Positions 37,500-55,621 of a stretch of DNA of 55,621 nucleotides are shown in pieces. This stretch comes from Pseudovirgaria hyperparasitica. Taxonomy: Eukaryota. The DNA lies in the NCBI GenBank assembly GCA_010093815.1, contig ML996584.1; one strand, written 5' to 3'. A program made the position numbers and the translations under genes. Below the pieces are notes generated by a model, which saw only the letters and a program-made list of their open reading frames with translations, had not been told where the DNA came from and made no database searches. Numbering within the stretch: position 1 is the first letter of the stretch; each line of letters starts with the position of its first letter.

Positions 37500-37831
37500 T
37501 TCGAGGAGTGGTGAGGTGGTAGTTGTGTCCAGCTGTTCAGGGCAAGGTGACGTGACGTTACAGTAGTAGGTAGGACATGAGGGACAATTCAGGCACATTT
37601 CAGGCAGCGAACTGTTCCTAGACTAATGGATGTCTCGTTAACGGTCACTGTGATCTTACCCGCTTATCTTATCGGTAGTCCCTTGTGAACCAGGCATGAG
37701 TGAAGTCACGAGTTTGGAAAAAAATGGCATACCGAAGTGCTCTCGGAAAGTCCATGTCTGTTTTATGAGACGACATCATGCCTAATTCTTAGAGCCATAA
37801 AAGCTCGATCTATAAATAAAAATAGATAAAA

Positions 37832-38203
37832 CTAGGGTGGCCTGCGGCCGGCAGACTGCGTGCAGTCTTAATTTAAGGCACCAAGGCACCAAGGCACCAA
37901 GGCACTAAGGCACGCCGGAAAATCCACGGCTAAGACGTGCGAATTTTCAACTCTCGAACCTACCACCAAACGCGACACCAGAGGCTTATAAACCCTACTC
38001 GTCCGCGACGACGCGGCTGTAGATAGTAAAAAGTATATAGAATTACACGGAACTTCATTATCCACAGAATTATCGGTCAAATTATTAATTAAGGGCGTGG
38101 TTAATTTAATATGTGGTAACAGGTGAGTTTTTGGACGTGATTCTGGTGAGGGCGCTAGCGGGCGCTAGACAAAACATTGCATCTTTTTATGATTCCTTTG
38201 GAA
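37832..38203 (-). mobile_element. Non-autonomous Helitron-like element, 372 bp, not RIP-mutated
   Basis: Minus-strand 3' end AGACTGC-AC-GCAGTCT hairpin..GGCCGCAGGCC-ACC-CTAG; 5' end TTCCAAAGGAATC; A|T target, no TSD. Internal (CCAAGGCA)n tandem repeat. Homologous at both ends to 52100..52447. Confidence 0.8.
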
Positions 38204-38508
38204 TAAATAAAAAACCGGATAAGCTGTGATAAGGTATACCTTGCTACACATCACGAATACATTCAGTAAGCCGAAGTAGTTACAACCTTACGGTAGCTGT
38301 GCTGGTCAACACTGACTGCATGACTCTTGGCTGCACAAAGCTAATTCAACCAGGATTTACCCGTCGACAGACGTCATTGTCCTCTTGGGAGCTGATACTG
38401 GCGAAGCTATGTACAACAACAATAGTTTAAATCACACCAACTGAAGGAAGAATTTCCCAAGACTCCAGATACGCTCCATATTGGCGCCAGCATAAGGCTT
38501 AGATATTC

Positions 38509-41280
38509 TCATACATCAATAGGTATACCTTCGTATTCGCCATAGCCAAGAGCGAGGTTCATGTTTTCTGCGGCGAACTGTTAGCATAAGACACTTTAGT
38601 TGGACGTGGCAATCTTACGTAGACATTGAGTGGCTGCCCCTTTGAGCAAGTTGTCAATCGTCGCATTGACGACCACTCTTTTGCCGCTGCTATGAACAGC
38701 AAATCCACCAATTTCGACACCGTGCTTTCCAGCAATGTTCTTGACGACCGGAGATTCGCCGATAACCTTGATCAACCGCTCTCCAGCAAACCTGTCTTGG
38801 TACAACTGGCGGATATCACGAGACTTCATTTCTTGTTTTAATGGAATATTGATAGTATGATGGATACCCTGAAACCATACTGCTACATGGGGAATGAAGG
38901 CAACTGAACGGCCGAGTTGGATCGAGATCTCCTTCTCATGGATATGATCAGTCAGACTATAAGGAATGAGGTTGTTAGTTAAGTTCTCTACGTCGTTCTT
39001 GGGACTTGGCTTGGTGCCGGCACCGGAATAGCCAGAGACACCAAAAACAGTGGCCTCGCCGCCAATGAAGTCTAGTAGTGGCGCAATACCCAGCTGTGCA
39101 GCGGTGGCGTAGCATCCTGGGTTAGAAATCCGAGTTGCTTCGGAAATCTTGCGACGGTCAACAAGTTCTGGTAAACCGTACGTCCAAGAGGGGTCGAAAC
39201 GATAGTCGGCGCTCAAATCAACAATGAGTGTTTCGGAACCAGCAGTCTCATTTATAGCATCGACGAACGGCTTGCAGACACCATTGGGCAAAGCCATGAC
39301 CCAGCAATCTATTTCCTTGTTTTCTGCCATCTTGCGTACGTCGTCCGGTGAAAGATTTTCGTACGTAATGTCGCGTTTAGTGTATCCAGTAAGCCTTTTA
39401 CCAGCCAACTCCCGGGATGACACATGACGGAGGTCCATATTGGGATGCGAGTTGAGCATATCAATGAGTGCTTGCCCAGTATATCCTCGAGCTCCAATCA
39501 GAGCGACTTTGGAAGGCCAGTCCTTACTCTTGAACTTTTTGCCAAAAGGGGGATTTGGGTTTGTTGTAGTAGAGTTGTTACGCACTTGCGTTGCCAGCAT
39601 GTGTTGCCCAAAAGCTGTACACCGCCTTGTTGGGTTCAGGGTGAACCTTGTGCTGGACGAGAATTGGCGGATTTGTTGCGTACTCCCCCCTGCACGAAGA
39701 CTGGCAGCGTAGTCAGCGGCTCGGTGAAGCTGAGATTCTAGGTTGACATCTCCGAACATACGACGGCCATGTTGGGAGAACTCTTGCATCAATGCTACAG
39801 CTTCATTTGGGTCGTTCGGTCCCCAAAAGCACAAAAGCTCACCGGTGTGTCTAAAGGTACCGTCCGCCTTGTCGGCGAACCAGCCGAGATTTTCGTCATG
39901 CTCATCAACAGTCCACACCAGTTTTGGGTATTCAGTGCGTAGGTTCGAGAAGACGTTGTCTGAGATGTTTGCTAGCCACGCAGACTTTGTGACAGTAAAT
40001 GTAGATAAATGAGCCATTGACGTATTGTCTGTGGGCGGGAAGACGATCGCGAGAGCCTCCATTCTGTCGTCAAAGAAAGCTTTGAATGGACGAGTCTTGA
40101 GGCTCTCGACATAACGGTCAACAACTGCTTCAGCATCCAGACCCTCTCTGTCTCGGAGCAGAGCAGTCTTTAATGTCTTGATATCATTGAAATCCTCGAA
40201 AGAAGTCGCGGTCGACAGCTTGTTCCCCTTACGAATTAGGGTTCCGGCACCAGTATGTGTGAAAAGCTCCCGTTCAAGATAGGATGGATGGATGATTGCG
40301 ACACTCGAAGTCTTCGGCAGGTCGTCAAGTAACTGCTTCATCTCCTTAATTTTTAGCCGTGTGCCATGTCTAACCCACGGCTGGGTCATTAGACCCTCGT
40401 ATTCTTCGTCAAGATTGATCGCCGAGATAAGCTTCCCAGTGTTGCCGTCGAACAGACCTCCTTTTTCCGAGAGATATACAATCTTCAGAGGCTCGAGAGC
40501 TCTCGCTAGCTCTCCAGCCACGACATCTGCATTGACATTGAGTATCTGGCCCTCGTGAGTTTCAGCCATTGACATCAGGATAGGTAGCTCTCTTGAAGCG
40601 ATGGCGGCCTCAATTGGTCGGGTATCCACGCTGCTCACTTTACCGACGTATTGCCATTTCTCCTTATCCAGATAGTCCGCGTATAGACAGCCTGACGTGA
40701 TCGGGCGTGCAAGCACACCATACTCCTGACGAAGTCTAAGAACCAAGTCCATATTGGCTTCAAGAAATAGTTTCCTTGCAATCCCAAGCGTTTTGGGGTC
40801 GGTAACACGGATTCCCTCTTCAAACTGAGGCTCAACACCAGCATCCTGGAGTATCTTGTTCAATTGGGGCCCTCCGCCATGTACAACTATAGGGTATAGT
40901 CCCATGACATAAAGACTTCTCAGCGCGCTGCATAGAACATCGACATGATCTGTGAGAATAGCACCTCCCACTTTGATCACAGCGAACTGTTGCGAGGATA
41001 CAGATCTGAACTGCGACAAGTATTGTTCAATCTCTCTCTTCGAACTAACACTCTCGAGGATGTTTAGGATGGCTAGGCGAGCTGAAGTTTGCCCGAGATC
41101 GGCATTCTGCTTAATTGAGGAGCTGAGAAATCGCTTCTGGACGATCTGGTGTTGCGGTAGCGAGATAGCCGTCGAGCTTTTGACGGTTGTGTATTCAGCT
41201 CGTGGGAGGGATTGGGCAGTAGCTCTGAACGCATTGCGAGCTGCCGCTGGGACAGTCTTGGACCGGAGAGTGGACAGCAT
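38509..41280 (-). CDS. ARG5,6: Mitochondrial acetylglutamate kinase / N-acetyl-gamma-glutamyl-phosphate reductase polyprotein (arg-6)
   Basis: Presequence; FAVIKVGGA..VVHGGGPQLN kinase; KVALIGARGYTGQ..ISNPGCYATA..GVSGYSGAG reductase; short last exon QNMNLALGYGEYEGIPIDV* (TGA at 38509-38511). Confidence 0.97.
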
Positions 41281-47970: not shown

Positions 47971-49146
47971 TCATACTTCTGCCACTAGCTGTAGATACGG
48001 ATGAAGCAGTGCTTCAGAGGCTGTGGGTCTTTTAATAGGATCCACAATTAGTATGAACTCAATGAAATCCAAGAGTTCCTTCAAGATCGGAGGGTCAGGA
48101 ATTGACTCCAACTCTTCTCGCCAATGGCGTCTAGTGATAAGCTTCATAGTACCGTGAGGGTGGTCCATTATCGCCAATTGTTTTGCGAACTCAAACTCAT
48201 CTTTGTAAGCCTGATTTTCAATAGGTTCACCCAGAGGTCCTACGAGGCGGATGATCTTCGCAATACACCATGCTTCAGTTTCACCTTCTATTATCTTGTC
48301 ACCTGCACCGAACAGGGGAAGTCCCGATAATTTAGTCGTCAGCTACTACATTAGCAACTTTTCAGATACGCAGGCACTATTGCTTACAGTAGCCCCAACT
48401 GACCAGACATCTGAAGAGTGCTGACATGGATGACCCCGCCAGATCTCCGGCGCTCGACACGGTAGACTTTGTAGACGCTGTTGTGCAACACCGGCCCTGA
48501 TTGCTGTTCGCGTCAAAGCCTGATCCATGCATAGGCCATGTTCTTACCGTTTCCTAAATCTCCCAATTTAACGATCGGGTCACTGCTGTCGACGCCAGTA
48601 ACATAAATGTTATTTGGATTGACGTCTGACTGAATCAGCACAGCTTCATGGACTTAACGACATAACGACCGGCCTGTATGAACGGCATTGACCGTCTTGA
48701 AAGCCTGCAGGGCCGACAGGACCGCCCTTGACACAAACTTTGGCAGGTTCAAATTGCTTCTAAGCGTAGGCGCAGGTATAGATCGTAAGTCTTGGTCCGT
48801 CCATTCAAATACTAAGCATGGTGGGTCCTCTCCGTGCTCATTCAATTGTATAGTGTCATACATCGCTCGAATATATGGACTGCTCGCAATTTCGGAAACC
48901 GTATAGTTACGGTGCTCTCGTCTTAGACACATTTTCTCCACGGCAGTGTTTGCGGTCTTAACGATAGCCCTTCAATGATAGTGAGCATGAACTTGGTAAT
49001 CGTGAAGTTCTATAGTCTTACCATTGTGCTTGTGTCGAAGGGCTAGATAATATCCTAGCCTTGAAGACAGTGGAGCCTTTCAGTGGATGTAATAGTTTAT
49101 ACACTCCTTTCGCCCCTTGGAGGGTTTGCCCTGTCCGCAGCGTCAT
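47971..49146 (-). CDS. Divergent Ser/Thr protein kinase (fungal SRPK/CMGC-like), 5 exons, at the RIP border
   Basis: MTLRTGQTLQGAKGVYKLL..W|AIVKTA..LVFEW..VHT|DVNPNNI..VKLGDLGN|..CRAPEIWRG..SDVWSVGAT|..DPIKRPTASEALLHPYL. Intron 2 requires a GC donor (GCCGGT). Confidence 0.75.
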
Positions 49147-49811
49147 GACTTAAGGAGTGATGGAGGAAGAATAGAACCAGGTCTTGAACTAGAGCGACTG
49201 AATCCCTGCATTTATACACTGGGTCATCTATATTCCGTGATATATCTATACTACTACTAACAGACCCACTTACTATACTATTAAAGTACTTTATTAGAAA
49301 GGGTACTATAATAGACCTAGATAGATTATTCTAGTCTACTTAAGTCTTAAGTAGATTAGATTAGCTAGGTTAAGTAGAGTTACTATATAAGTATAATATA
49401 AGGTTTTAAAAGGTATATATAATAATAATATTCTTAGAAGGTAGTTATTAGAATAGATACTAGAATAGACTTAACTAGACTACTATAGTCTAGTATAGTC
49501 TTATAATAGATAGACCTAGATTAAGTTAGCTAGACTAAGTAAGACTACTATATAAGTAGACTATATAAATCTAATTTCTACTTCTTAGAAATTAATCTTA
49601 TTATAAGAGTAGACTACCCTTCTAAATATATTCTTATATTCTTCTATAACTTATTAGACTACTATTCTATATCTATAATTCTTATATTTTAATTTCTCTT
49701 TATAATAGTAGCTTATAGAAATAGCTTTAACTTTAACTATAATATATATAAGAAGAAGACTCTTACTTCTTTATACTCTAAGAGACTAAAACTAGTTAAT
49801 TTAGAGTAATA

Positions 49812-50720
49812 TAGTAATCTATATATATTAATTAATAGAGTATACTAAGTATAATAACCTCTAATATATATATATATATATATAGTATACTAAATATAAT
49901 AATACTAATATATAGAGATATTATATATATATACTTAAAAACTCTTTAGAGATATAAGTATAGACTACTACTAGTAAATACTAATATACTAACTCTCTTT
50001 TTTATTAGTTAAGAATAGCCCTTAATTAATAACTATAGAGGTCTTAGATACTAATATACTCTAGCTTCTATTAGATATATCTCTAATACTAATATAGTAG
50101 AAATAGCTATATAGTAGAATATTCTAGAATAATTAAATCTCTATCTTAAAGACTATAAATAATTAAAAAATATAAGAATATAGATAGTTATAAGGAGTAC
50201 TAAATAGATTATAAGTCGAATAATAATCTATATATATTAATTAATAGAGTATACCAAGTATAATAATCTCTAATATATATATATATATATAGTATATAAG
50301 TGTCAGGCACGTGAGGAGCACGTGGCCTGCTAGTTGATTATACATGTGTGTAGCAGTCGTATATAAGCAGTGTGCTCCACCCTTGAAGTAGTAGCTTTAA
50401 GATTCGGTCCTTTTGGTATAGTTGGTTGGTGCGTAGAGCCCGTCTCCTTACAATAAGACGTAATAATACTAATATATAGAGATACTATATATATATACTT
50501 AAAAACTCTTTAAAGATATAAGTATAGACTACTACTACTAAACGCTAATATACTAACCCCCTTTTATTAGTTAAGGATAGCCCTTAACTAATAACTATAG
50601 AGGTCTTAGATATCGATATACCCTAGCTTTCGCTAGATATATCTCTAATCCTAGTATAGTAGAAACGGCTATATAGTAGAATATTCTAGAATAATTAAAC
50701 CCCTATCTAAAAAGTAATAA
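49812..50720 (+). repeat. Tandem direct duplication (period ~409 bp) at the 5' end of the LINE; second copy interrupted by the solo LTR
   Basis: AATCTATATATATTAATTAATAGAG at 49816 and 50225; copies stay collinear through ..GAATATTCTAGAATAATTAAA. Confidence 0.85.
50301..50452 (+). mobile_element. Solo LTR (152 bp) of the TRIM-like family, lightly mutated
   Basis: TGTCAGG...CCTTACA termini; 5-bp TSD ATAAG (50296-50300 and 50453-50457); two CACGTG boxes; TATATAA at 50360; reverse complement of the LTRs at 52535-53572. Confidence 0.92.
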
Positions 50721-52099
50721 ATAAGAATATAAAGTACTATAGATAAAGAAGAAAGAGAGAACTCTATCTAGAGATACTCTTCTAGATAAAATTAACTACT
50801 AGATAGTATATATAGAGAGGGAGGTTAAGAAAGATAAGACTACCCTTCTTAGTATCTTCTAGAGTCTAGTCTAGAATATTAAGAAGCTTACTATAAGAGT
50901 AAAATAAATACTAGAGATAAGTCTAGAATTAAGGTTAGACTAAATTAAGGCTAGCCTACTAAGAATCTAGAAAGGCCTTACCTAGAAAAAACGTCTATCT
51001 ATCTAGGCCTAAGTTATAGTATTACTAGATAGTATAACTAGAATAATCTAAATACTAAGAATATCTATAGAAGAAGTATATAGTATATAGATTACTATCT
51101 AGAATAAGAAAGTTCTTATATAGGTCTAAAAGGTATCTCTAAAGGATATTATTAATAAGATTAATAAATAAAAAGAGATATAGTTAAATATAGTTATAGC
51201 TAAACTTACTCTAGAAGGTATAATATTAACTACTACTACTAATATAGTCTAGTAGACTATCTTCTATAACCTAAATATAATTAATAATATCTTTTCTAGT
51301 ATCTCTATCTATACTAATATATATCTAATATAGATATATATAGTCTCTATCTAGGGATATATTATTAGTACTAATAATATTAAGTAAATAGAATAATCTA
51401 ATAAATAGAAGTACCCTAGAATTAAGATTATAAAGGTATAGTAGAAGAATATATAAGGGATTAAGGTAAAATTAAAAAAGTACTCTACTATAATAGTAGA
51501 GCTCTAAGACTCTACTCTTATCTATTAGATTATATAGAAAGACTTCTTAGCTAATAGGGAGTTACTTATAGTAGAACTATAGAATAAGGCTTAGATAATA
51601 ATCTAATACTTTAACTATTAGAGATATAGATATATAGAATAGAGATACTCTTAGAAGACTATCTATAGATAGTACTAATAGAACTATAGTATCTAGGAAT
51701 ACCTATATAAAGTCTAAGGGGACTATATATATAATAAAGATACTACTAAGTACTCTAACTATAATAGAAATTATCTATTATAGTTAGTAATATATATAAT
51801 ATAAAATATAAATAAGTTACTAAGTATATTAATACTATAAAGGTAAGAGAAGTAAGATAGATATAATAGACTATAAGACCTCTACTATCTATTCTAACTA
51901 TATCTATAAATATACTAACTAACTTATAAGAAGACGGGACTAATATATAATAGTATACTATATAGAGGAAGATAGGGTAACCCTAGAGTATTCTTAAGGT
52001 AGCTACTATATAGAGATAGTCATGTCTTAATACTACTAGTATATAGACTTAAGCGTTCCCTAGTATCTAATAAGAAGCTAAGATATATTTATTATTATA

Positions 52100-52447
52100 C
52101 TAGGGTGGCCTACGGCCGGTAGACTACGTGTAGTCTTAATTTAAGGTACTAAGGTACTAAGGTACGCTGGAAAATCCACGGCTAAGACGTGTAAATTTTT
52201 AAGCTACTACTAAACGCAATACTAGAGACTTATAAACCTATCTTATCTATAAGTATAGCCCTATAGAGGGTAAAAAGTATATAAAAATACTTATCGTAGA
52301 TAGGGCTATAAAACTAGAGACTAGATTTTTAAATTAGGGCCTAGTTAATTTAATATATTATAAAAGGTAGATTTTTTATCATGATTCTAGTGAGGGCGCT
52401 AGCGGGCGCTAGATAAAACATTATATCTTTTTATAATTCCTTTGGAA
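52100..52447 (-). mobile_element. RIP-mutated Helitron-like element (348 bp) inserted at the start of LINE ORF2
   Basis: Same termini as 37832..38203 (CTAGGGTGGCC.. / ..ATTCCTTTGGAA) with C>T/G>A changes. Excision at A|T gives ATA|TAG GCG AAT (I/V-Q-A-N after RIP reversal). Confidence 0.8.
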
Positions 52448-52534
52448 TAGGCGAATATATAATATAAATAAGCAAACTAGGCTATACTTCTAGAAGAGAT
52501 AGATACTATAATAATAGCTATCTAGAAGCTATAT

Positions 52535-53572
52535 TATAAGAAGATAGACTCTATATACTAACTAACTATACTAAAAGGACCGAATCTTAAAGCTACTACT
52601 TCAAGGGTGGAGTACACTACTTATATATAACTACTATATACATGTAATCGACTAGTAGACTACGTGCTTCTCACGTATCTAATAATATCTCCCCTTTTTA
52701 AAGGCGCGTGTCCTTATATATCGTAGGCATGTTACCTTATAAAAGATAAACTAAACTAGCCGTAATAGGCCTAGTATAAACTATATATACACCTAATTAA
52801 TATTTATAGTACCGCCTCTAGTACTAGACACGCTAACTTACTATAGTAACGTTACTACTATGTTATCTATTATATATAGAGTACGTAATATAGTAAGCTA
52901 AATAGAATTATATAAAATTTAATAATAGTTAACTAGACCAAGAGTTAAACCCGTAACCCTATAGTAGCTTTAAGATTATATAAGAAGATAGACTCTATAT
53001 ACTAACTAACTATACTAAAAGGACCGAATCTTAAAGCTACTACTTTAAGGGTGGAGTACACTACTTATATATAACTACTATATACATGTAATTAACTAGT
53101 AGGCCACGTGCTCCTTACGTATCTAATAATATCTCCCCTTTTTAAAGGCGTGTATTCTTATATATTATAGGTATGTTACCTTACAAAAGATAAACTAAAC
53201 TAGCCGTAACGGGCCTAGTATAAACCATGTACACACCTAATTAATATTCGTAGTACCGCCTCTAGTACTAGACACGCTAACTTACCGTAGTAATATTACT
53301 ACTATATTATTTATTACATATAGAGCACGTAACGTAGTAAGCTAAATAGAATTATATAAAATTTAATAATAGTTAACTAGACCGAGAGTTAAACCCGTAA
53401 CTCTATAGTAGCTTTAAGATTATATAAGAAGGTAGACTCTATATACTAACTAACTATACTAAAAGGACCGAATCTTAAAGCTACTACTTTAAGGATGGAG
53501 TACACTACTTATATATAACTACTATATACATGTAATTAACTAGTAGGCCACGTGCTTCTTACGTGCCTAATA
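52535..53572 (-). mobile_element. Tandem-array miniature LTR retrotransposon (TRIM-like): three 150-bp LTRs and two 294-bp internal regions
   Basis: LTRs at 52535-52684, 52979-53128 and 53423-53572 (period 444). TSD TATAT on both sides. Minus-strand PPT AAAAAGGGGAGATAT abuts each downstream LTR. No evident coding capacity. Confidence 0.88.
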
Positions 53573-55621
53573 TATATAAATACTACTAAACTAATAAACT
53601 AATAATATACCTAGAATACTATACTATCTACCCCCTAGACCTAGATAGAAGAGTTCTATTCTATATATATAAATCTATTCTACTCTTAGAATAGTTCTAT
53701 ATAGAATAGAATAACCTCTAGATAATACTATATCTCTAGATAGAAATAGGGCCTCTCTATATCTATAATATCTATAACTAGAGAGAATTACTTATACTAG
53801 ATACTATACTAGAGAGTATTATAGAACTAGAATAATATATTCTTCTAGATAACTTTAACCTCTACTATAGATAGTAGGGAGGCCTAATAGTTATTAGGGA
53901 AGAGCTTAGAGTAAGGGAACTATATATAAGATACTATAACCTTCTATATCTTCTTATACTAGTTAGATAAATTATATAGAGGAAATATAAGAAGGATAAG
54001 AAGAGATCTATACTTAACCTTACCCTTACTACGGAATATATAAGCTATAGAGTATAATATTACTACTCTAGTAAGATATAGATAGACTCTAACTATAAAT
54101 ATATAGAGACTATAATAGATATATCTATATCTAATAAATAATAGAAGAGATAGCTATAGAAAGATACTAACTAGAAGAAGTATAGAGAGGACCTAGAATT
54201 AGCGATTCTAGACCTCTCTATAATTAATATATCTAATAGCCTAGCCATAGATAGAGTCGTATAAGCTCTTCTTTAAGCCTTCTAAAACTTAAGAGATAAA
54301 TATATACTATACTAAATATATAAGCCCCTAGATATAAGAGATATACCTTAAATATATAAAAGTAGAAGAGAAGTCTAGAGACTATATATACGTGTATACT
54401 ATATCTAGATAACTAAAGTATAGAAGAAATAGAAAGAGATAATCTAATCTTATAATAGGACTCTCCGTAATAAATAATATAAATACTAGTATATAATTAC
54501 TAATAAATATATATACTAGGCTATAGGGCTATAGTATATAATAAAGTAGACTAAGAGCGTAGATATACTAACGCTACTACTACTACTACCTCCTCTAATA
54601 TACTAGGGAAGGATATATACTATAAGCTCTAAAAAGATAGAGATTCTCTAAGAAGTTATATTTCCCCCCCTAGAGCTAGTAGACCTATTAGATATTAATA
54701 ATAATATATATCTAGATATAGTTAATATCTCTATAGAGATTATAGAAGAAGATATACTTAATACTATTAAAGTACTCCCGAATAATAAAGCGTCTAGACT
54801 AGATAAAATACTAAATAGATACCTTAAATATACTATATAGATAATCTTACTACTTATTAGTCTTATCTTCTAGATATATACTAAGAACGGGTACTACCCC
54901 TAAAGCTTCTAGACTATCTATACTATTATACTTCTAAAGCTAGAGAAAAACTCTAACTCCCTAAAAGGATAGAGACTAATTACCCTTCTCTTCTATCTTA
55001 GTAAGATACTTAAGACTATAATCGCGAAGAAGATAAGTACTATAGTATAAGAATATAATCTTCTTCTAGCGAACTAGAAGGTAAAGACTAGAAGCTCTCT
55101 AATTACTACTATCTAATATATTCTTAAAGTTATCTAGACTATATAGAAGTAGAGACGCGTAGTAATATTACTCTCTCTTAATATAGCTAGTATATTTAAT
55201 AGGATAAACTATATAAGACTTATCTATAACCTATAGAAGAGATATATACCTAAATAGATTATAAAGTTTATATAGTCCTTCCTTATATAAGTTTTATATA
55301 TATAATAATCTTATAATCTATTATATATATAATATATAAGTTATATAGAATAAGAGTCTAGCTCTACTCTATTCTATTCTATAGAAGTATATTCTCTAGT
55401 ACTCTATAGACGAGTTCTAGTTCTATTCTACCTCTACTCTACTCTAGAGGTAACTAAGCTCTATTCTACTCTAGAAACTAGACTAGAATCTATAACTTCC
55501 TTAGAGACTATAGACTAGGAGACTTATATTAATATAAGCTAGTACTAGCTTATATTAGATTAAGTAGGAATCGGAAGTACATGGATAGAGATAATATATT
55601 AATTAATATATTAACTCTTAG

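Follow-up and report, generated by a model that had tools for sequence, protein, structure and literature searches.

A candidate self-priming, miniature long terminal repeat retrotransposon in the fungus Pseudovirgaria hyperparasitica

Near the end of a 55,621-nucleotide stretch of contig ML996584.1 from the Pseudovirgaria hyperparasitica assembly GCA_010093815.1 (hereafter the window) lies a 1038-bp insertion composed of three long terminal repeats (LTRs) and two short interiors, and this locus raises the question of how an element of such small size might have primed its own reverse transcription. The answer that the sequence suggests is that the primer was supplied by the element's own transcript. 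We consider it probable that the insertion is a non-autonomous miniature terminal-repeat retrotransposon (TRIM) that used self-priming of the kind described for the Tf1 retrotransposon, and that has here been inactivated by repeat-induced point mutation (RIP). The coordinates of all features are collected in Table 1.

The key observation concerns the letters that follow each upstream LTR. Both interiors carry at this place a putative primer-binding site (PBS), AATCTTAAAGCTACTA, that pairs at 16 of 16 letters with LTR positions 89–104, and the exact complement is present in every LTR. The same two sites had been pointed out in a first-pass annotation of the window, made from its letters, and were recovered by us at identical positions. 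In a comparison of the LTR with the first 25 nt of the interior, this 16-nt match was the longest reverse-complement match, and when the LTR was shuffled with its dinucleotide composition preserved, none of 5000 shuffles reached 16 nt for either copy (maxima of 15 and 14 nt, with most values at 6–9 nt). The trinucleotide 5′-TGG is absent from the putative PBS. The complementary LTR segment, which we refer to as the putative self-primer, begins 29 nt after the first base of a TATATAA box in the solo LTR, again in agreement with the earlier reading, and the same spacing was read directly in LTRa.

Structure prediction provided further support for this notion. Folding of the predicted 87-nt transcript, which extends from LTR position 89 through the last PBS letter, yielded a minimum free energy (MFE) of −22.6 kcal/mol with the 16-bp stem as its core, compared with −15.5 ± 2.9 kcal/mol for shuffled sequences (z = −2.48; 5 of 200 shuffles were as good). 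The stem was retained in the MFE folds of the 126-nt and 358-nt transcripts, and a separate 7-bp hairpin was predicted directly after the PBS. The repeat (R) and unique 5′ (U5) regions of the solo LTR, when folded alone, were weakly structured (−8.2 kcal/mol, z = +1.59), which suggests that the 5′ end of the transcript would be free to pair. Around the self-primer of the solo LTR we also observed an inverted repeat with a 4-nt loop (50382–50401, LTR positions 82–101), in which one arm comprises the first letter of the self-primer and the 8 nt preceding it, and the other comprises primer positions 6–13. This inverted repeat is perfect in an LTR variant that carries C in place of two T letters of the self-primer (the C-variant, described below) and contains two G–U pairs in the T-variant found in the window. 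If a transcript began upstream of position 82, its 5′ end could form a self-fold and not pair with the PBS.

The reading of these signals depends on the nature of the insertion, and the segment at 52535–53572 is a real LTR-retroelement insertion, because three independent 5-bp target-site duplications, TGT...ACA ends and empty sites were all identified. The TGT...ACA ends are carried by the solo LTR, while the ends of the tandem copy have been changed by RIP to TA...TA. Two of the duplications flank the tandem copy and the solo LTR of the window. The third was found at a further solo LTR located in GC-normal DNA (records 18 and 25 of X3/X4, introduced below), where CTTTT stands on both sides, as read from the loose contig ends at 50325 and 50452. 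A paralogous empty site of the window's solo LTR was identified by alignment near 49886–49897, with collinear flanks and a 155-nt gap spanning the LTR; this LTR sits in the second of two units, each of about 562 bp, that make up an older tandem duplication, the first unit being its empty site. For the tandem copy, we placed Logan contigs from X1 and X2 (the runs holding this stretch) and from X3 and X4 (same species label) on positions 50250–53650. Contigs joining 52529 directly to 53573 were observed, four in X1 and two in X2, and they skip exactly 1043 nt (1038 + 5), with the five letters fitting either side. From their sequence, these contigs are copies of the host repeat that lack the insertion. 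Taken as a set, the features found are those of an LTR retrotransposon, namely TG...CA ends, 5-bp duplications, empty sites, a purine tract and a primer-type site.

Within the insertion, the tandem LTRs are 93–97% identical to one another and 83–84% identical to the solo LTR, and the two interiors share 91% identity. The solo LTR retains a TA dinucleotide that is absent from the tandem LTRs. The LTR length of 152 bp given by the first-pass annotation thus fits the solo LTR but not the 150-nt tandem LTRs, while its interior length of 294 bp applies to both interiors, and the polypurine tract that it had placed before the 3′ LTR is found as AAAAAGGGGAGA, whose end is separated by 3 nt from each downstream LTR. 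A canonical unit consisting of an LTR (150–152 bp), a 294-bp interior and a second LTR would measure about 594 bp, a size derived here from the three-LTR copy, with no separate two-LTR copy in the window; the unit length proposed previously is therefore consistent with the parts, but the copy that is present has the order LTR–interior–LTR–interior–LTR. In the unique 3′ (U3) region of the solo LTR, two CACGTG palindromes, spaced 11 nt, lie upstream of the TATATAA box. The solo LTR of X3/X4 is without 12 nt near its start, leaving one CACGTG box, and LTR forms of 152 and 140 nt are accordingly observed.

Table 1. Positions of the insertion, its putative functional parts and neighbouring features in the 55,621-nt window
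Feature	Position	Strand	Remarks
Whole insertion, LTRa–interior a–LTRb–interior b–LTRc	52535-53572	-	1038 bp = 3 x 150 + 2 x 294
LTRa, 5′-most in element sense	53423-53572	-	150 nt, RIP-mutated
Interior a (spacer T, PBS, leader, purine tract)	53129-53422	-	294 nt
LTRb, middle	52979-53128	-	150 nt
Interior b	52685-52978	-	294 nt
LTRc, 3′-most	52535-52684	-	150 nt
Putative PBS, interior a	53406-53421	-	AATCTTAAAGCTACTA; 1 nt (T) after LTRa
Putative PBS, interior b	52962-52977	-	AATCTTAAAGCTACTA; 1 nt (T) after LTRb
Putative self-primer (probable 5′ end of R)	53471-53486 (LTRa), 53027-53042 (LTRb), 52583-52598 (LTRc)	-	
TATATAA box, LTRa	53509-53515	-	starts 29 nt before self-primer; read directly
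Purine tract	53132-53143	-	AAAAAGGGGAGA; ends 3 nt before LTRb; twin at 52688-52699 before LTRc
Target-site duplication TATAT, tandem copy	52530-52534 and 53573-53577		5 letters shared at empty-site joint
Solo LTR, TGTCAG...CTTACA	50301-50452	+	152 nt, GC 48%, lightly mutated
CACGTG boxes, solo LTR U3	50308-50313, 50319-50324		upstream of TATA box
TATATAA box, solo LTR	50360-50366	+	29 nt from its first base to start of 16-mer
Self-primer segment, solo LTR	50389-50404	+	LTR positions 89-104
Target-site duplication ATAAG, solo LTR	50296-50300 and 50453-50457		
Older tandem duplication	49811-50162 and 50220-50724		unit about 562 bp, units 87-93% identical; AT-rich block
Second small dispersed repeat, about 385 bp	37826-38210 and 52094-52449		copies 83-87% identical
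arg-6 type ORF, bifunctional acetylglutamate kinase / N-acetyl-gamma-glutamyl-phosphate reductase	38596-41280	-	intact, single exon, 894 aa

Based on this arrangement, a replication cycle can be proposed. Transcription would begin within the 5′ LTR, about 29 nt beyond the first base of the TATATAA box, and the first ~16 nt of the RNA, whose complementarity to the site lying 1 nt after the LTR is observed, would fold back on that site in vivo. In Tf1, pairing with the PBS involves the first 11 nt of the RNA, and an RNase H cut between nucleotides 11 and 12 frees the primer (PMC7175516). By analogy, the RNase H of a helper's reverse transcriptase would cut the duplex of the present element, and the freed 3′ end would prime minus-strand DNA through ~49 nt of U5/R, followed by strand transfer. 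The purine tract before the 3′ LTR would then prime the plus strand, and integrase acting in trans would give rise to 5-bp target duplications such as the three that were observed.

Since the element contains neither gag nor pol, all enzymes would have to be provided by a helper in trans. No ATG-initiated open reading frame (ORF) of at least 20 amino acids was found in the element, and a Pfam search of the six frames of 49000–55621, with stops rendered as X, gave nothing above threshold (two chance-level matches, with E-values of 0.15 and 0.58), in accordance with the absence of any evident ORF reported earlier. Rfam returned no match at E-values up to 1 for positions 50200–53700, and ARAGORN detected no tRNA genes in the window, so that the LTR lacks a tRNA- or 5S-like component such as Helenus and Cassandra contain. 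Metagenome scans with a 24-nt LTR pattern and with a primer–gap–PBS pattern gave no matches. A word search for spurious ORFs passing through un-mutated copies, which used a 40-amino-acid open frame on the reverse strand of the solo LTR, likewise returned none; the sole match of this frame among 1.84 billion representatives, P0121, is an unrelated repeat protein of 1041 amino acids and was rejected as a chance similarity.

Among the alternatives to an amplifying TRIM family, the one that survives best, although we judge it unlikely, holds that the LTR element is real but that its short form arose once, by internal deletion of an autonomous self-priming chromovirus. The many interior-like contigs would, with the same low likelihood, derive from the untranslated ends, 5′ and 3′, of full-length elements or reflect segmental duplication. 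The absence of a canonical two-LTR, 594-bp copy from the window agrees with such an origin, and no second complete LTR–interior–LTR copy with its own duplication was seen among the contigs, which are mostly 150–250 nt long and too short to show whole copies. On the other hand, records 17 and 30 of X3/X4 hold, at another locus, the whole uninterrupted interior (53135–53423, 289 nt), in which 38 differences and 4 gaps were counted, which argues against a one-off event. In record 17 this interior is joined on its purine-tract side to the first ~70 nt of an LTR, and record 23 covers the interior–PBS–LTR junction. Moreover, interior position 53253 is covered by at least 29 different X1 contigs, variant contigs of X1 are listed over 53175–53402, that is, most of the interior, and the summed X1 depth, which is not a copy number, is similar across six interior bins (16.6–27.6 thousand, about one-third of the highest LTR bins). 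Such a spread of variants and such even depth are unlike what a single-locus deletion junction would give, and they hint, though no more than that, at repetition of the interior as one complete unit. An X3 contig with a less mutated interior ends upstream of the PBS in Illumina adapter, and X3 and X4, whose library kind is not on record, cover almost none of the AT-rich repeats that X1 and X2 cover thousands of times.

The second question is how a perfect complement came to be present in copies that are heavily mutated. The gene-bearing part of the window has a GC content of ~49%, which changes sharply to 23–31% in an AT-rich block extending from ~49,230 to the window end. Within this block (49230–55621), repeat copies differ almost only by transitions, a pattern that is the signature of RIP. 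The tandem LTRs differ from the solo LTR by 26–27 substitutions, all of them transitions, of which 26 are C>T/G>A changes and 0–1 the reverse; for LTRa the counts are 26 C>T/G>A, one reverse and no transversions. Changes in the tandem LTRs affect 15–17 of 23 CpA/TpG sites and 9–11 of the 50 other C/G sites, and all 26 sites that differ between interior a and interior b are transitions. The CpA/TpG index is 0.92 (normal) for the solo LTR and 0.18–0.30 for the tandem parts, and the solo LTR retains its GC content of 48% within DNA of 27% GC. RIP is length-dependent, such that a repeat of 152 bp is too short and a tandem duplicate of 444 bp is a target, and the near-intact solo LTR beside the mutated tandem copy fits this dependence. 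A plausible course of events would begin with unequal LTR recombination, or an equivalent event, that created three LTRs and two interiors, after which the 444-bp tandem duplicate would have been heavily mutated by RIP, with the 152-bp solo LTR left almost untouched. All copies in the window are relics, and the tandem copy has probably been inactivated by RIP.

Sequencing contigs revealed that other LTR copies carry C where the solo LTR has T at 50389 and 50398, corresponding to primer positions 1 and 10, and G where it has A at 50418. The C at 50389 was found in 16 contigs of X1, 13 of X2, 2 of X3 and 2 of X4, and that at 50398 in 11, 11, 2 and 2 contigs, respectively. All three positions are CpA/TpG sites. 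The 16-mer of the solo LTR is itself of the T-variant, so that the sequences observed to match at 16/16 letters are versions with RIP-type changes. At both PBS letters that mismatch the C-variant, the window has A in a TpA context, as RIP makes from TpG. In the simplest history, a perfect 16-nt complement would have existed ancestrally, C/C standing in the LTR and G/G in the PBS, and RIP would then have hit both partners. Since a CpA in one arm corresponds to a TpG in the other, saturating RIP would preserve the complementarity.

These observations bear directly on a second alternative, which we regard as improbable: that the TRIM was primed by a host tRNA or a tRNA fragment, and that the 16-nt complement is either a structural stem of the U5–leader type or a likeness that RIP produced between two AT-rich stretches of unrelated origin. 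A tRNA-complementary PBS does form part of the published TRIM definition (PMC6934838), and the fungal Helenus TRIMs use tRNA anticodon loops, without a TGG start (PMC10886601). In addition, our comparison covered the PBS and the LTR in a window with no tRNA genes, and shuffles of such low-complexity DNA do occasionally reach 14–15 nt (1 of 5000 per copy). Against these points stand the position of the 16/16 match, exactly at the PBS in both interiors, and the location of its complement at the expected transcription start. Furthermore, the first-pass annotation had named RIP convergence, from a tRNA-type PBS, as an outcome that would overturn self-priming; we find this unlikely from the sequences at hand, because 14 of the 16 PBS letters are already matched by LTRs that are GC-normal and essentially free of RIP, and the two mismatches are CpA/TpG sites. 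Convergence would require complementarity to the un-mutated LTR, which RIP cannot create, and an origin from an unrelated tRNA-type PBS is thus disfavoured. The weakest alternative, that no transposon is present and that RIP-degraded DNA, tandemly repeated over 2.3 units of 444 bp, happens to contain an inverted repeat, is extremely improbable, for although repeat analysis of the window reports simply a direct repeat with a 444-nt period at the insertion, this explanation is already contradicted by the three different 5-bp duplications and the empty sites of both insertions, and it leaves aside the precise TGT...ACA ends of the solo LTRs and the purine tract and PBS-position signal at the LTR borders.

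The history of the T-variant may also have been a different one. Seven differences separate the solo LTR of the window from that of X3/X4, and the three sites listed above, two of them inside the 16-mer, are among these. The T-variant may represent a lineage rather than independent RIP, its PBS having then been re-templated from its primer. In retroviruses and in Tf1, the primer sequence is copied into the PBS of the progeny. Changes in the primer would reach the PBS at retrotransposition, because the plus strand copies the primer. We put forward, as a rather unlikely possibility, that the PBS acquired in this manner the RIP-type C-to-T changes of primer positions 1 and 10 and that the lineage so marked stayed mobile with 16/16 pairing. 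It would follow, no less tentatively, that the solo LTR and the tandem copy of the window are its offspring and that C-variant LTRs are accompanied by a G-containing PBS. If true, primer-templated inheritance would constitute a natural two-site compensatory test of self-priming, as well as an example of a retroelement small enough (594 bp, with a solo LTR of 152 bp) to move in a RIP-active genome.

Returning to self-priming by a TRIM as the preferred explanation, several results weigh against it. The RNA of the Tf1/sushi group forms a three-duplex ‘pretzel’ (PMC10085805); of the folding of the 5′ region that had been suggested earlier, the 16-bp stem is predicted, but the two side duplexes of the Tf1 pretzel are not, and MFE folding of these RIP-mutated copies gave only helices of 2–3 bp in the loop. 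The assignment of LTR position 89 as the probable 5′ end of the transcript is drawn from the spacing to the TATA box. In Tf2, a transcript starting downstream of the self-primer is not reverse-transcribable (PMC5341516). As ARAGORN found no tRNA genes in the window, the PBS was compared with the LTR. The C-variant LTR, which is the form in X3/X4 and makes up about one-third of the LTR depth in X1/X2, matches the window's PBS at 14 of 16 letters, with two C–A mismatches that hold unless its own PBS has G at those places. Upstream of the PBS, records 17 and 30 continue into sequence unlike an LTR end (loose end at 53423), and this copy is truncated, chimeric or a member of another subfamily. Finally, no retroelement domain that could belong to a helper was recognisable in the AT-rich block (six-frame Pfam search of 49000–55621). 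The first-pass proposal of a self-priming TRIM that borrows Tf1-type enzymes therefore stands as regards its miniature size, non-coding nature and PBS–LTR complementarity, but a Tf1-type helper domain was not found in that block.

Several known systems come close to the element. The self-priming chromoviruses of fungi, the Tf1/sushi group, comprise Tf1, Tf2 and Tj1 of fission yeasts and, in filamentous fungi, Maggy, Skippy, Cft-1, Boty, Grasshopper and Afut1. As in this group, the putative PBS lies just after the 5′ LTR and complements an LTR segment downstream of the promoter rather than a tRNA, the target duplication is 5 bp long, a purine tract precedes the 3′ LTR, and the host is a fungus. 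The present element differs from the group in its lack of gag and pol, in its length of 594 bp compared with ~5 kb, in the pretzel side duplexes, which are not predicted for it, and in a duplex of 16 nt, where that of Tf1 has 11 nt (PMC7175516). Carrying no reverse transcriptase, it cannot be placed within the Tf1/sushi clade. Self-priming has also been predicted for plant chromoviruses of the Tcn1 clade and for the copia TAR lineage (Houba, Osr-1), there too from LTR/PBS complementarity alone (PMC6317226), although these plant elements, unlike the present one, are autonomous. Given the prediction for the copia TAR lineage, the helper need not be of the Tf1/sushi type.

Another group is formed by the TRIMs, known from plants (including Cassandra), from an ant, a cestode and a bivalve, and, as Helenus, from rust fungi and Agaricomycetes. 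The element shares with them a size below 1 kb, terminal repeats of 100–250 bp, a short non-coding interior with a PBS and a purine tract, and solo repeats. Tandem arrays of x terminal direct repeats (TDR) and x−1 interiors (I), written TDRx_I(x-1), are known together with solo repeats from plant, cestode and bivalve TRIMs (PMC6934838), and the arrangement found here is TDR3_I2. As in the fungal Helenus elements, the duplications are of 5 bp (PMC10886601). Judged by its sequence, the element agrees in structure with what defines a TRIM, apart from the tRNA PBS: described TRIMs carry a tRNA-complementary PBS, whereas the present one complements its own LTR, and the LTR also differs from those of Helenus and Cassandra in having no tRNA- or 5S-like part.

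In rust fungi, 113 Helenus families have been reported, with PBSs that mostly match tRNA anticodon loops and with copia-like helpers (PMC10886601), and a Zymoseptoria tritici library contains one TRIM family (PMC10652580). Self-priming was raised merely as a possibility for the bivalve TRIM (PMC6934838). The combination had been suggested to be undescribed; self-priming elements and fungal TRIMs have each been described separately, and no description of a self-priming TRIM or large retrotransposon derivative (LARD) was found among the papers listed by full-text searches of a literature that leaves most subscription journals and Repbase outside its scope. Among the titles and abstracts listed for the genus name Pseudovirgaria, there was no transposon study. 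The novelty of a self-priming TRIM is thus plausible but modest. Since a non-autonomous derivative must keep the priming signals of its helper, and since self-priming is common in fungi, such an element would be no surprise in principle.

If confirmed, the 594-bp element would represent a natural minimal substrate for self-primed reverse transcription, reduced to promoter, self-primer, R/U5, PBS, short leader and purine tract. It would thereby delimit the cis requirements of a mechanism that has been studied mainly in Tf1 and Tf2, and would imply that a helper's RNase H and reverse transcriptase are able to recognise, in trans, such a primer duplex. TRIMs are at present defined with a tRNA PBS, and this working definition would be widened; fungal elements of this kind would be overlooked or wrongly classified by annotation pipelines for which a tRNA-type PBS is obligatory. 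The locus further illustrates the length dependence of RIP, with a 152-bp solo LTR that is nearly intact and a 444-bp tandem duplicate saturated with transitions.

Beyond the element, the window contains further features of note. The arg-6 type ORF is 100% identical to a dothideomycete protein at NCBI, listed under a name that starts with Pseudovirgaria, and its next matches, at 76% identity or less, are from other Dothideomycetes, which identifies the host as a fungus of this class. Another feature is the dispersed repeat of about 385 bp. No terminal inverted repeats were found in it, and Rfam gave no matches for 37700–38300. It contains a short AAGGCACC-type microrepeat. Its un-mutated copy lies ~390 bp from the arg-6 ORF, the RIP-mutated copy adjoins the tandem TRIM, and the repeat was also found in less mutated form in high-depth contigs of X3/X4 (records 21 and 28).

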